The translations under genes were made by a program, and so were the position numbers. Shown here in pieces: positions 28,631 to 33,111 of a stretch of 64,000 nucleotides of DNA; the stretch's first letter is position 1, and each line of letters opens with the position of its first letter. The notes below the pieces were generated by a model, which was not told where the DNA came from, did not search any database, and saw only the letters and a list, made by a program, of their open reading frames with translations. The stretch is from Actinomycetota bacterium (GTDB taxonomy: Bacteria > Actinomycetota > Acidimicrobiia > Acidimicrobiales > JAJPHD01): the NCBI GenBank assembly GCA_021325455.1, contig JAJPHD010000009.1, forward strand, positions 65,792-129,791. The letters run 5' to 3'.

Positions 28631-30088
28631 CTACCTTCCTTCGTCCCTCGGGCCCCCAGCGTCGTCGGCGGCGGCCGAGGCGCCCTTGCCACCGGAGCCC
28701 GGCCCGTCCCCGCCCGGCGTCCCCGCCCGGGCGGCCTCGAGGGCGGAGAGGACCTCCGCCACGTGGCGGTCGCAGGAGGCCCGGTCACCGGCCTCCAGGT
28801 TGAGGCGGAGAAGGGGCTCGGTGTTGGAGGGGCGCAGGTTGAACCACCAGTCGCCCAGGTCGGCGGTGAGCCCGTCCAGCCGGTCGAGGGAGGCCCGCCC
28901 GGCGTAGGCAGCCTCCATGGCGTCTACGACCGACCGGGGGTCGTCCACTTGGATGTTGATCTCCCCGGAGTTGGCGTAGCGTTCCAGGGGCCGGCGCAGC
29001 TCCGACAGGGGCTGACCCGCCCTGGAGACGACTTCCAGGACCACGGCGGCGGCGATCAGCCCCGAGTCCGCCCGGTAGTTGTCCCGGAAGTAGTAGTGAC
29101 CGGAGTGCTCCCCCCCGAAAACGGCCCCGGTTTCGGCCATGACGGCCTTGATGAAGGAATGGCCCACCCGGGTACGCACAGGAGTCCCCCCGGCCTCAGC
29201 GATGACCTCCGGGACCACCTTGGAGCAGATGAGGTTGTAGAGGATGGTGGCTCCGGGGTGCTTGGCGAGCATGGCCTGGGCCACGAGGGCAGTGGTGATG
29301 GAGCCCGAGAGCGGCTCGGCTTGGTCGTCGACGAGGAACACCCGGTCGGCGTCACCGTCGAAGGCCAGGCCGACGTCGGCGCCCGTCTCGCGCACCCTGG
29401 CCTGGAGGTCCACCAGGTTCTCGGGCTGGATGGGATCGGCAGGATGGTTGGGGAAGGTCCCGTCCAGGTCCCCGTAGAGGATCTCCAGGCGGAAGGGGAG
29501 CCGCTCGAACACCCGGGGGACCACCAGCCCGCCCATGCCGTTGGCGGTGTCGGCCACCACCCGGAGGGGTCTGAGCGAGGCGGCGTCGACGAAGGACACG
29601 ACGTGGTCCGCGTACTCGTCCAGGAGGTCCATGCGCTCGACCCGGCCCGGGCCGCTCCCCCCCGACCCTGGTTCGCCCCCCCCGGCCTCCTCCTGGAGGG
29701 CCATGCGCTGGATCTCGGCCAGTCCCGTGTCCTGCCCCACCGGGCGGGCCCCTGCCAGGCACAGCTTGATCCCGTTGTAGCGGGCCGGGTTGTGGGAGGC
29801 GGTGAACATGGCTCCCGGGGCGTCGAGGTGCCCCGACGCGAAGTAGAGCAGGTCCGTCGAGGCCAGGCCGAGGTCGACGACCGCCGCCCCCTCGGCCGTG
29901 GCCCCGTCCACGAAGGCCGCCACCAGCTCCGGGCCGGAGGGCCGCATGTCCCGGGCCACCAGCAGGCGCTCAGCGCCTGTGAAGCGGGCAAAGGCGGCCC
30001 CGACTGCCCGGGACAGGGCAGAATCCAGCTCGTCAGGAACGACGCCGCGCACGTCGTAAGCCTTGAAGACCGAGGCTGGAGCGGGCAT
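28631..30088 (-). CDS. manB: Phosphomannomutase/phosphoglucomutase
   Basis: FKAYDVRG, TASHNP, FDGDADR, GGEHSGH, RPSNTEP. Confidence 0.94.
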   Translation of the reverse strand: MPAPASVFKAYDVRGVVPDELDSALSRAVGAAFARFTGAERLLVARDMRPSGPELVAAFVDGATAEGAAVVDLGLASTDLLYFASGHLDAPGAMFTASHNPARYNGIKLCLAGARPVGQDTGLAEIQRMALQEEAGGGEPGSGGSGPGRVERMDLLDEYADHVVSFVDAASLRPLRVVADTANGMGGLVVPRVFERLPFRLEILYGDLDGTFPNHPADPIQPENLVDLQARVRETGADVGLAFDGDADRVFLVDDQAEPLSGSITTALVAQAMLAKHPGATILYNLICSKVVPEVIAEAGGTPVRTRVGHSFIKAVMAETGAVFGGEHSGHYYFRDNYRADSGLIAAAVVLEVVSRAGQPLSELRRPLERYANSGEINIQVDDPRSVVDAMEAAYAGRASLDRLDGLTADLGDWWFNLRPSNTEPLLRLNLEAGDRASCDRHVAEVLSALEAARAGTPGGDGPGSGGKGASAAADDAGGPRDEGR

Positions 30089-30188: not shown

Positions 30189-33002
30189 CTAGGGGTCCCG
30201 GGCCTCCACCAGCTCGCGTTCCCCGGCTCCTGAGTCAGCGCCCGGGCCCGCAGGAGGCTCGCCGGGGCCGTCCTCCCCTTCCTCGCCGCGCCGGCCCCGG
30301 GCCCTCTCCAGCAGGGGCCTGTGCTCCGGCATGGGCACTGGCCCGCGCCAGCCCATCCACACCACGCCGGCCAGGCCGGCCAGGGTGACGGCGATGCCGG
30401 CCCAGTCCCCCTTGGTCCTGCCGTAGACGAGGGAGACATGGTGGGAGCTCGGGACGACCACCATCAGGTTGGGGGTCACCCTCCAGGGGCCCCGGGCCCC
30501 GTGGGCCTGCCAGTTCGGGAAGTACGAGGTCTTGACCAGGACCGGGGTGCCCGTCCTCGTGACGTCGAAGCTGATGCGGTTGTCGCCCTGGCTGACATGG
30601 CTCACCGCTGTGGGGGGAACCGGGACCGCCGGCGTCCGCTCGTGGGCGTGCTGCCCACCCAGGTCCAGGGTGCTGGCGCGGACCCGAGGCCACGATGGGG
30701 GACCGCTCTCGGCCAGGACGACCCCCCAACGCCGGGGGTGCATGTACCAGGGGATCGAGACCTTCAGCCAGCCGGGGCCCGTCCTCGCCACCGCGGTGAG
30801 GACCACTGGTCGATGAGACAGGGGCACCACCGTCGAGGAGTCGTGGACCAGGTAGATGTCCCAGGTGCGCTTGATGGTCTTGTTGCCCACGACCGTGGGC
30901 CACGGCCCGGAGGTGGCGATCCTGGTGAGGGAAGGGTCCCGGGCGGCCTGGGCCTCGGCCTGGGGCGTGAAGGCCATGTAGTAGCGGACGCCCAGCAGCT
31001 GCAGGTGCTGGACGCCCGCGGCCACGTCCAGGGGCCCGTAGGGAAGGTTGGCCTCCGCCTCCGACGGGTGCAGGGAGAGCTCGGCCTGGTTGATGAAGTG
31101 GTAGGGGGTGGTGGCCGAGGACTCGAACAGCAGGCCCTCCATGGAATCGATGCAGCCCCGTGTCCAGAAGGGCAGGAGCATCAGGGCCATGGGCGTGCCG
31201 AGATCGTTGAGCTCGGGCCCGTACTCCCACATGGCCCGGCCGCAGCCGTACCGCTTGCCCACCCGGGCCATGGTGCGCATGAGGGCGTGGTACTCGGGCC
31301 AGGTCGACTTGCCCTGGTAGCCCGAGTAGTTCCAGCGCACCCAGTCGGGAACGAAGCTCTGCTGCACCGGGATCGGGATCCACGAGAGCCCGAGGGGCAC
31401 CACCACCACGGCTGCCGCCGCCACCCCGGCCAGGAGGGGGGTGGCCACCGCTGCCACCGGGCCCGCCCGGGTGAAGCCCCGGAGGTCCCTCCCCGCCGCC
31501 ATGTGGGCCACCGCCTCCGGCCTCCAGCGACGGGCCCGCCTGGCCAGCTTGACGAAAGGCCCGACCCCCGAGCCCTCGGCCAGGGCCACCCACAGGTCAA
31601 AGGCGGCCGGGCCCAGAGACGGCTGGCGCCGAGCGAGGTGGGCAGCCTCGCCCAAGGCCTCCTTCAGCTCGTAGGCGCGGGCCAGGTCGGGATCGAGGTC
31701 CAGGGCCACCCGGGCGGCATCCCTCTCGCCCTGACCCCAGTCAGTGGGGTCCTGGTCCAGGTCGGCCCGCTCCCTGGCCAGGGGGTCGAGGCCCTGCCTG
31801 ATGGCCTGCACCAGCTCGGGATGACCGGCGAACCGCCTCGCCACCTCGTCCCCCGTCGCCCAGAGCGCCCCCAGGGCCGCCTGGCCCAGGTTCCGGCGTC
31901 CCGGCCAGCGCGCCTTCCTGCGCCCCCACAGGTCGGCAGCCAATATCCCCAGCTCGGCCGCCGCCACCCCCGCCAGCAGGTACACGCAAAGGATCCAGAA
32001 GGGCAGCAGGCGGGCGTTGTAGAGCTTGCTCGTGGGGTCAAGGATGAACATGGCGGCGGACAGCCCCGCCATGACGATCAGGAAGGTCCCCACCCTCCGG
32101 CGCCGGACCAGGGAGATCACCGCTCCCACGGCGGCCAGGGCCACCGCCCACAGCAGGCTCTCGGGGAACATGCTGGCCACGTAGGTTGTGACCTTCTGCC
32201 AGCCCATGTTGGTCGTGTAGGGCAGCCCCAGGTAGAAGGGGATGACCCAGAACCCGGTGATGGCCACGCCTGCCGCCGCCACCGTCACCGCCCAGCGCAG
32301 GCGGTAGCGGTCCCACCGGGCCAGGACCAGCACGACAGCCCCTATCCCGGCCCAGAAGGCGGGCACGAAGTGGCACAGGGCGGACACGGCCAGAAGGAAG
32401 GCGGCCAGGGCCCGGCGCTTCCCGGTCCGCAGGCCATCGGCCACGAGGCCAAGGAACATGAGGGCAAAGGCCAGGCTGAGGGAGAAGCCGAACTCCCCGG
32501 CCAGGGTGGAGGCGATGTTGCCTCCGTAGATGGTGAAGCTCTGGTCGAAGAGGAAGGGCAGCGTGGCAGCTGCCAGGCAGGCGGGGCCGGGCCGGCGCAT
32601 ACCCGCTCCCCGCCCAAAGAGGTAGGCGCTGAGCGGCAGCAGCAGCGAGCCCGCCGCCGTGACCAGCTTGAACGCCACGTTGTAGGGGGCGACCAGGTTG
32701 AGGATGGCCACGAAGAGCGCCGGCAGCGGGAAGTAGAAGGTGTACTGGGGATAGCCGTCGTACCACCAGGGGCTCCAGCCCGTGAGGCGGAAGTGGGGGA
32801 GCAGGTGGTGCTCCATGTACCAGGGCAGGGCCACGTGGGCGCCGGTGTCACCGCCGGCGGTGGTGGTGTTGGCAAAGAGGAGAGAGGGGTCCAGCTGCCA
32901 GAAGACGAGCGCCGTGGCCCCCCCCACGACGAGGACGGTCACCAGGTCAGGGAGGCTGAGCTGCGGCAGGAGGCGGAGGGCCCGATGGCGCATCCCGCCC
33001 AT
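30189..33002 (-). CDS. Large polytopic GT-C-like membrane protein (PTPS-related/YfhO-like) with an internal ISL3-transposase-like segment
   Basis: GGDTGAH, GWSPWWYDGYPQYTFYFP, GGNIASTLAGEF, many TMs. C-terminal VLVKTSYFPNW...PNLMVV plus final TM. Start 33002 or 32993. Confidence 0.85.
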   Translation of the reverse strand: MGGMRHRALRLLPQLSLPDLVTVLVVGGATALVFWQLDPSLLFANTTTAGGDTGAHVALPWYMEHHLLPHFRLTGWSPWWYDGYPQYTFYFPLPALFVAILNLVAPYNVAFKLVTAAGSLLLPLSAYLFGRGAGMRRPGPACLAAATLPFLFDQSFTIYGGNIASTLAGEFGFSLSLAFALMFLGLVADGLRTGKRRALAAFLLAVSALCHFVPAFWAGIGAVVLVLARWDRYRLRWAVTVAAAGVAITGFWVIPFYLGLPYTTNMGWQKVTTYVASMFPESLLWAVALAAVGAVISLVRRRRVGTFLIVMAGLSAAMFILDPTSKLYNARLLPFWILCVYLLAGVAAAELGILAADLWGRRKARWPGRRNLGQAALGALWATGDEVARRFAGHPELVQAIRQGLDPLARERADLDQDPTDWGQGERDAARVALDLDPDLARAYELKEALGEAAHLARRQPSLGPAAFDLWVALAEGSGVGPFVKLARRARRWRPEAVAHMAAGRDLRGFTRAGPVAAVATPLLAGVAAAAVVVVPLGLSWIPIPVQQSFVPDWVRWNYSGYQGKSTWPEYHALMRTMARVGKRYGCGRAMWEYGPELNDLGTPMALMLLPFWTRGCIDSMEGLLFESSATTPYHFINQAELSLHPSEAEANLPYGPLDVAAGVQHLQLLGVRYYMAFTPQAEAQAARDPSLTRIATSGPWPTVVGNKTIKRTWDIYLVHDSSTVVPLSHRPVVLTAVARTGPGWLKVSIPWYMHPRRWGVVLAESGPPSWPRVRASTLDLGGQHAHERTPAVPVPPTAVSHVSQGDNRISFDVTRTGTPVLVKTSYFPNWQAHGARGPWRVTPNLMVVVPSSHHVSLVYGRTKGDWAGIAVTLAGLAGVVWMGWRGPVPMPEHRPLLERARGRRGEEGEDGPGEPPAGPGADSGAGERELVEARDP

Positions 33003-33111
33003 CCTGCCTGATCGACCCCCTGGGCGCAGATCGCCCCCCGAAACGGCACCTCCGCCCGTACCGCCCTCCCTGTCCCCGGACCGGTGCTGCCAGCGGGCAG
33101 GGGCCCCGCTG

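Follow-up and report, generated by a model that had tools for sequence, protein, structure and literature searches.

Mobile-element proteins that have been put to host use are best known from RAG1, from the hAT- and piggyBac-derived genes of eukaryotes, and from the TnpB-derived regulators of bacteria, and these usually keep a DNA-binding or a catalytic part, as a stand-alone protein. In bacteria, transposase-derived parts kept for host use are few, to our knowledge, and they are mostly whole nucleases or DNA-binding proteins. Here we describe what appears to be a case of another kind, found in a stretch of 64,000 nucleotides ('the window') from an Actinomycetota bacterium of the order Acidimicrobiales (GenBank assembly GCA_021325455.1, contig JAJPHD010000009.1, positions 65,792–129,791). 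One gene of the window, at 30189–33002 on the minus strand, encodes a membrane protein with the GT-C fold of glycosyltransferases, and between two of its transmembrane (TM) helices lies a domain of 145 amino acids (aa) that is homologous to part of the transposases of the ISL3 family. Like the domesticated proteins just mentioned, this insert is derived from a mobile element, immobile, orthologous in position and under purifying selection; unlike them, it consists of an internal insertion sub-domain alone, carried as a loop of a membrane enzyme. The explanation we favor, at a probability of roughly 0.6, is that the sub-domain was captured in frame, once and long ago, and has been kept by selection as a non-catalytic cytoplasmic appendage.

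ISL3 transposases (Pfam PF01610, DDE_Tnp_ISL3; NCBIfam NF033550, the ISL3 equivalog) are the nearest described relatives of the insert. Genuine members have a zinc ribbon (PF14690), a helix-turn-helix (HTH; PF13542) and an Asp-Asp-Glu (DDE) catalytic triad, and a helical region interrupts their RNase-H-like core between the second Asp (D2) and the Glu. It is to this region that the insert is homologous, with 39% identity over 122 aa to the nearest transposase found (L007:967-2055), but it has neither triad, nor zinc ribbon, nor HTH; no terminal repeats of the insertion sequence (IS) type were found; it is lodged between two TM helices of a protein that is not a transposase; and its net charge is acidic, where theirs is strongly basic. 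That the helical region is a separable unit has already been noticed by the curators of NCBIfam, whose model NF049919, 'DesA/ISL3 alpha bundle tail domain', covers this region alone. The name implies that they saw the bundle outside ISL3 transposases, too. The protein that bears the insert resembles, for its part, AftD, ArnT and the GT-C enzymes of family PF10131, with which it shares its fold, an N-terminal multi-TM module, a first outer loop with an acidic motif and a large outer C-terminal domain. It differs from its PF10131 relatives in the helical bundle on the cytoplasmic side between TM10 and TM11, which 103 of the 114 relatives aligned do not have. PF10131 and PF01610 already appear together on single proteins in precomputed Pfam lists, but literature searches (on ISL3 domestication, on the insertion domain and on the alpha-helical bundle) returned no description of the arrangement, and searches on 'DesA' with ISL3 or alpha bundle, and on ISAon1, returned nothing relevant. 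What is unusual about it is that an internal insertion sub-domain is the sole survivor, and that it has come to rest inside a membrane enzyme.

The insert was first noticed in a reading of the window by a model that saw only the sequence and its open reading frames (ORFs). This sequence-only reading placed an ISL3-transposase-like helical domain at 31490–31890, quoted the peptide ATGDEVARR from the loop, and professed not to recognize the architecture as one already described, with which the searches above are consistent. The peptide is there, starting at residue 382, and so is the domain. PF01610 matches the whole protein at residues 403–501 (31500–31796, minus strand) with 30.4 bits (E 4.2e-7), above the gathering score of 23, and it matches the loop alone, 154 aa, with 35.4 bits (E 1.3e-8). 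The match spans only positions 108–204 of the 240 in the profile and so is not full-length. The entire inserted domain, delimited by Pfam, BLASTP, AlphaFold2 (AF2) modeling, alignments and the distribution of Lys and Arg (K/R) among the loops, comprises residues 368–512 (31467–31901, minus strand); the range first proposed was thus in the right place, but a little narrow.

By BLASTP, the loop aligns with L007:967-2055 with no more than a single 1-residue gap (48 of 122 aa identical, E 1e-17). This ORF belongs to a bona fide ISL3 transposase from the same order (PF01610 positions 1–237 of 240; NF033550, 182.5 bits), and it was the best match among 19 other genomes whose matches were ORFs of transposase size; one further hit, L022, was discarded as a spurious Ala/Arg-rich protein. 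A profile built from five inserts retrieved 83 proteins from 1.84 billion representatives at E ≤0.001, and 77 of these carry PF01610. The remaining six were set aside as spurious, five of them PD40-repeat proteins and one an Mrr-type protein (P0137). Two motifs shared with ISL3 transposases, DP.L.RAYELKEA and DLW.ALA.GSG..PF..LA, are kept within 31500–31796, and the residues most conserved across the ISL3 family are retained (L73, A76, L79, K80 and E81 of the loop; DP.L.RAY.LKE and W...A..S....F..LA).

Further afield, a scan of JGI metagenomes with the insert gave at least 48 loci; among those listed none is more than 42% identical, and of their 48 ORFs, 46 have a PF01610 match and not one encodes a membrane protein. 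A search with the insert profile for longer proteins found eight, all of them insert-bearing members of the GT-C family, and no other architecture was seen; a homologue search with residues 385–510 recovered only the query's own cluster. An ESM Atlas search from which PF01610 clusters had been removed yielded nothing usable (best score 0.87), and PADLOC reported no hits. Some ISL3 hits are joined to pieces of other families (P0145, P0182, P0190 and locus L086; the pieces include an N-terminal sulfatase piece, an RHH domain and UPF0236), and these look like IS-disrupted genes, or nested elements, that gene callers have read through.

Alignment of the insert with 74 ISL3 sequences shows how much of the transposase was taken. 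The opening residues of the insert fall at the D(p)FH motif, the position of D2, although this N-terminal register is uncertain by a few residues, and the last (GRDLRGF) fall at G-l-S-N-g, just ahead of the catalytic Glu. On L007, NF049919 matches residues 150–283 (model positions 1–122 of 122, 32 bits), and this is the same interval as the insert. From these two alignments, the captured piece is the D2–Glu helical region, without the catalytic residue on either side, much as the sequence-only reading had it: a match that starts just after the first motif, ends just before the second, and takes in the non-catalytic helices alone. No DDE triad is present. The region of the first Asp is missing, the D of DpFH falls on a variable residue (G368), and the Glu would lie past the end of the insert, where RDLRGFTR is aligned with GlSNg. 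Neither the zinc ribbon nor the HTH matches anywhere in the 937-aa protein at E ≤10. All told, only some 145 aa of a transposase of about 430 aa are present.

Nor does the DNA around the insert look like that of an IS. Between 31200 and 32200 two pairs of inverted repeats were found, and neither resembles IS ends: the arms of I1 (23 nt, 74% complementary) both lie inside the insert and do not bracket it, and those of I2 (12 nt; 31493–31504 and 32048–32059) are not placed as IS ends would be. The gene is translated without interruption, stop or frameshift, into 937 aa. Its codon usage in the insert is host-like, with a G+C content at third codon positions of 0.91, as against 0.93–0.94 in the flanks. 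In all of these respects the first description was accurate. The genome itself (G000), which is 96% complete, holds no PF01610 match other than the insert. A direct repeat of 24 nt (31414–31437 and 31957–31980; 22 of 24 nt identical, 543 nt apart) does bracket the insert; in TM10 as in TM11 it codes for LLAGVAAA. It is probably due to chance or to local conversion rather than a trace of insertion, because in four related genomes the TM11 peptide differs in the alignment; the repeat itself was not searched for in these relatives.

The insert is confined to one small branch of its family. At E ≤0.001, the family had 1958 members among 8000 candidates scored, 120 of which were listed and 114 aligned. 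Eleven of the listed proteins (P0002, the window's own, and P0003–P0012; 862–949 aa) are 58–100% identical to the query over 85–100% of its length; most of the others are 760–860 aa long, and their best local alignments cover about 35–50% of the query and break at the loop. The loop between TM10 and TM11 has a median length of 29 aa in the family, but of 150–185 aa in the carriers, and the alignment of orthologs confirms that the difference is an insertion, a block of 120–155 aa present in these 11 alone. In a maximum-likelihood tree computed without the insert columns, the 11 form one clade (Shimodaira–Hasegawa-like approximate likelihood ratio support, SH-aLRT, 99). One change of state accounts for the presence of the insert on this tree, and none of 500 shuffles of the labels matched that. 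The tree thus supports a single gain, in one clade, and since ISL3 transposases are widespread and the insert is limited to this clade, the transfer ran from transposase to glycosyltransferase, not the other way.

Of 401 genomes that sample the order, the only ones with insert-bearing orthologs belong to the family of the window itself (f1): G000 and four of the five others, a count that rests in part on three genomes (G215, G169, G117) flagged as unpublished. These orthologs, with open frames of 955–967 aa, are 50–59% identical to the loop. The sixth genome, G256, is 73% complete and has no match to the protein as a whole, and so is uninformative on loss. Gene order (FtsH, CPBP, GT-C, phosphomannomutase, Trm112, PGI-PMI, HPF) is kept in four loci, as far as their contigs reach; these loci ('MAG: Acidimicrobiales bacterium') may overlap with the four f1 genomes and are not an independent count. 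ISL3-type matches elsewhere in f1 were found in G256 (a 427-aa frame, 65 bits) and in G117, which has three, including the insert. One of these, at G117:C96:33397-33699, is an ISL3-type fragment (162-aa frame; NF049919, 42 bits) some 21 kb from the insert-bearing gene, with which it shares a contig. Outside f1, ISL3 hits are sparse in the order, with 19 of 395 genomes having any. Several family members without the insert (P0077, P0025, P0030, P0032, P0028 and P0029) have loops of 66–110 aa at the site equivalent to residues 362–512. The two seen in the alignment, those of P0025 and P0029, have a low-complexity look and no YELKEA-type motif. Such loops make the TM10–TM11 loop a general hot spot for changes in length.

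Modeled with AF2 from the 114-sequence alignment, the full-length protein is well defined (mean predicted local distance difference test score, pLDDT, 92.8; predicted template-modeling score, pTM, 0.91), and so is the insert (pLDDT 95–98; 97.2, with a pTM of 0.90, for the domain modeled alone). It consists of eight helices, at residues 372–390, 395–409, 412–417, 421–436, 438–459, 461–477, 481–492 and 494–502. In front of it lies TM10, the last helix of the N-terminal module (residues 329–365; 31908–32018, minus strand, from the model), and behind it TM11 (residues 513–537; 31392–31466, minus strand, from the model and the K/R pattern), which leads the chain back to the external domain. Short loops rich in K/R (0, 2, 4, 6 and 8) alternate with K/R-poor ones (1, 3, 5, 7 and 9), and by the positive-inside rule this assigns loop 10, which is the insert, to the cytoplasm and the C-terminal domain to the outside. 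Such a layout, with a cytoplasmic loop and an outer C-terminal domain, is usual for GT-C proteins. The presumed catalytic loop with its GGD motif lies with the C-terminal domain on the outer face, opposite the helical bundle.

The surface of the bundle has also changed. Summed over the eight helices, net charge runs from –9 to +2 in the 11 inserts; in the same region of ISL3 transposases it averages +9.7 and ranges from –2 to +26 (46 sequences with at least 110 residues in the region). This argues that the insert no longer binds DNA, although the idea that this ISL3 region faces DNA is itself an assumption, carried over from other DDE transposases that have insertion domains. Other positions are conserved among the inserts, in motifs specific to them: ARDRADL..DPT.WG (invariant core R-x-R-x-x-L-x-x-D...G), RPE, and D.R.F..A. 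When the insert model was compared with 48,161 chains by VIA-align, the highest Z was 6.8, for the ligand-binding domain of McpS, and Hel2i of RIG-I/MDA5 reached about 6, scores that are within the noise for helical bundles.

The host protein fits the GT-C description given to it at the outset. PF10131 ('PTPS_related') matches residues 88–338 with 34.6 bits (gathering score 26.4), and this family is listed among those of the GT-C/PMT clan in PMC7801869. Foldseek comparison of the full-length model with the Protein Data Bank (PDB) put AftD first (E 7.6e-7) and found ArnT (E 1.1e-4) and, more weakly, STT3/AglB, AftB and PglB. Both parts of a GT-C fold are present, the multi-TM N-terminal module and the outer C-terminal domain, and from end to end the model shows about ten TM helices, the insert, a further TM helix, an alpha/beta domain, a final TM helix and a disordered tail. 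The N-terminal module (residues 1–365; 31908–33002, minus strand) is delimited by secondary structure assigned to the model with DSSP, by alignments and by the K/R pattern of the loops. Within it, the first external loop holds the motif GGD(T/M)G, whose D52 has a conservation of at least 90% in the 114 sequences and may, by analogy with other GT-C enzymes, be catalytic. The extracytoplasmic alpha/beta domain (residues 538–863, 326 in all; 30414–31391, minus strand; from alignments and the model) is strongly conserved across the family. TM12 (residues 864–885) and an acidic, disordered cytoplasmic tail (residues 886–937; together 30192–30413, minus strand; from the model and the K/R pattern) complete the chain, the pLDDT of which falls below 50 from residue 921.

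The start of the protein is probably M1, at 33002, or M4, at 32993, because orthologs align from about these residues and P0002, its copy in the database, is 934 aa long; the open frame itself reaches 33269, 89 codons further upstream. Long antisense and out-of-frame ORFs overlap the gene, such as 30321–33011 on the plus strand (896 aa), but these are typical of DNA with 70–75% GC and are not genes.

The gene stands between one for a CPBP/Rce1-like protease and one for a phosphomannomutase (28631–30088, minus strand; PGM_PMM domains I–IV by domain annotation, and syntenic in relatives), the latter beginning 100 bp downstream. Beyond the phosphomannomutase gene come those for Trm112, an SIS protein of the PGI/PMI type and a ribosome hibernation factor. 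Three relatives among the 120 listed (P0034, P0069 and P0114; 1219–1253 aa) have four PGM_PMM domains fused to the GT-C match, at the N-terminus of the protein, and PF10131 is listed for two of the three. This fusion, a 'Rosetta-stone' link, points to a glycan pathway based on mannose, and shows that in this family coupling to sugar activation takes place at the cytoplasmic face; nothing ties the insert to it. Together with the downstream genes for phosphomannomutase and PGI/PMI, the fusions hint that the enzyme may be a transferase that depends on a polyprenyl-phosphate sugar.

How might such a protein have come about? We picture an ISL3 copy, or part of one, entering the permissive cytoplasmic loop between TM10 and TM11 in an ancestor of f1. 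What survived would be the only part able to fold on its own, the stretch between the Asp of D-x-F-H and the Glu of S-N-G-x-x-E. Without the first-Asp region, the zinc ribbon and the HTH, and with the D2 and Glu positions not retained, this piece is unable to cut or to bind transposon ends. It has since been retained at full length, under purifying selection, from the ancestor of one Acidimicrobiales family onward, while its surface shifted from basic, and presumably DNA-facing, to acidic. Today it would be an appendage of the host protein, structural or for protein docking, with no part in transposition; a cytoplasmic brace, or a docking surface, is the most economical guess at its role. Its origin, anatomy, topology, phyletic distribution and selection rest on the data; its role today is our inference.

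Selection is central to this account, and the estimates, by the method of Nei and Gojobori, come from five genomes, three of them the unpublished ones (G215, G169 and G117), at values of dS (0.7–1.6) that are near saturation, so that the ratios of dN to dS (omega) are approximate. On that footing, omega is 0.17–0.52 for the Pfam core of the insert (residues 403–501), 0.20–0.40 for the N-terminal TM module, and 0.18–0.34 for the C-terminal domain. When codons were bootstrapped for four pairs, omega was 0.26–0.52 for the insert, with every 95% interval below 1, and 0.21–0.31 for the flanks; the proportion of nonsynonymous differences equaled or exceeded that of synonymous ones in none of 1000 replicates. 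In genus g2 the insert (0.26) is as constrained as its flanks (0.21–0.22). In all 11 known carriers the insert is full-length, with only small indels, at a dS of about 1. The sequence-only reading had allowed that presence in a single strain, evolving neutrally, would indicate an IS scar; there are 11 carriers, and omega is significantly below 1. Its larger proposal, that the domain has been domesticated, stands as far as history goes, in that the insert originated in a mobile element, is immobile, was gained once, sits in a kept gene order in several species, is under purifying selection (from five genomes at near-saturated dS) and has gone from basic to acidic; its use to the host is something we infer.

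Several observations pull against our account. Besides the small, partly unpublished sample and the near saturation, the pair G000–L003 shows an omega of 0.52 in the insert and 0.24 in the flanks, and the insert exceeded the flank in 999 of 1000 bootstraps, a sign of relaxed constraint. Purifying selection on a passenger domain can, moreover, come about simply because misfolding is costly. The insert is missing from more than 90% of the family, so it is dispensable for basic activity. The NCBIfam models score it below their cut-offs: NF033550 places the loop on positions 238–331 of its 370 with 18–27 bits, against a cut-off of 180, and NF049919 scores the five inserts at 25.6, 20.5, 21.7, 20.8 and 19.2 bits, against a cut-off of 30, over model positions from 24–39 to 104–121. 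By these scores the insert is a divergent, sub-threshold relative of NF049919 that covers the same region. Lastly, Foldseek found no match in the PDB for the insert model at E ≤0.001, the best being a designed helical filament at 0.44, and so offers no functional lead.

The chief competitor, less likely in our estimation but deserving of respect, is that the insert is a tolerated scar: an ISL3 copy decayed, an in-frame fragment of it stayed behind, and this fragment, functionless, is conserved because a misfolding loop would harm an important membrane enzyme. In its favor, the loop is prone to change in length, and other members carry 66–110 aa there, of low-complexity appearance in the two cases seen; the captured piece coincides with a self-folding domain, just what a filter of tolerance would let pass; constraint is relaxed in G000–L003; and most members of the family lack the insert. 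Yet bacterial genomes show a deletion bias, and despite this bias the insert has been retained in full by every carrier. In g2, its omega is on a par with that of the flanks, and the invariant motifs peculiar to the insert, along with the systematic reversal of charge, point to new constraints rather than drift. Because of this full-length retention, an omega well below 1, the motifs and the altered surface, we take the insert to be kept by selection and not merely tolerated.

Kept for what is harder to say. A more specific proposal, to which we attach only modest odds, is that the insert has been exapted as a docking or regulatory module on the cytoplasmic side of an envelope glycosyltransferase, and might, for example, recruit the mannose-activating enzymes encoded next door. 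That is conceivable because other lineages have phosphomannomutase fused to this same GT-C protein.

Truncated transposases are known to inhibit some other elements, and by analogy the insert might act as a membrane-tethered decoy that poisons the assembly of incoming ISL3 transposases by binding to them. The analogy is all this idea has to go on, apart from the facts that the domain faces the cytoplasm and that G000 has no other PF01610 match. An argument from an 'ISL3-free lineage' was dropped, since G256 and G117, of the same family, carry ISL3-type matches; and with ISL3 so sparse across the order as a whole, nothing can be made of its absence from G000. The identity between the insert and any transposase found is, moreover, only 30–40%, and the net charges are opposite. 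We consider a decoy very improbable.

Slimmer still is the chance that insert and transposase are not homologous at all, and merely look alike as Ala/Leu/Arg-rich helices from a high-GC genome will. Composition of that sort, rich in helix-forming residues, did produce the spurious PD40, Mrr and L022 hits, but it does not readily produce a match above Pfam's curated threshold, collinear over 122 aa with its single 1-residue gap, that retains the most conserved ISL3 motifs and whose profile finds ISL3 proteins in 77 cases out of 83. Least credible is an artefact, whether a chimeric assembly or a live IS that interrupts the gene and was read through by the ORF caller, for although one ortholog is publicly annotated 'transposase', the frame is continuous, a third or so of a transposase is present without IS ends, a contig assembled by Logan from run X1 (which may be the source sample, so that it is not independent) spans 31096–32400 and both junctions with 0 differences, and the same architecture recurs in ten further proteins from other assemblies (NCBI, JGI, Logan) and in four genomes with kept gene order, which excludes misassembly. 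The ortholog in question, P0010 (938 aa, an NCBI record), is a GT-C membrane protein like the rest, and evidently owes its label to its PF01610 hit.

Several things follow. Annotation pipelines can mislabel insert-bearing glycosyltransferases as transposases, and for P0010 have already done so. Searches by sequence and by fold turned up no solved ISL3 structure, and for the insertion domain of ISL3 the insert offers a stand-in that is natural, soluble and folded with confidence. The case shows that the decay of an IS within a permissive loop can supply a host protein with a ready-folded domain. Should the insert prove to have been exapted for docking or regulation, it would be the first bacterial DDE-transposase sub-domain described, as far as our searches show, to have been domesticated into a membrane enzyme. 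In any event, this small group of soil Acidimicrobiales presents a rare bacterial case in which a fragment of a transposase has been retained within a host protein.

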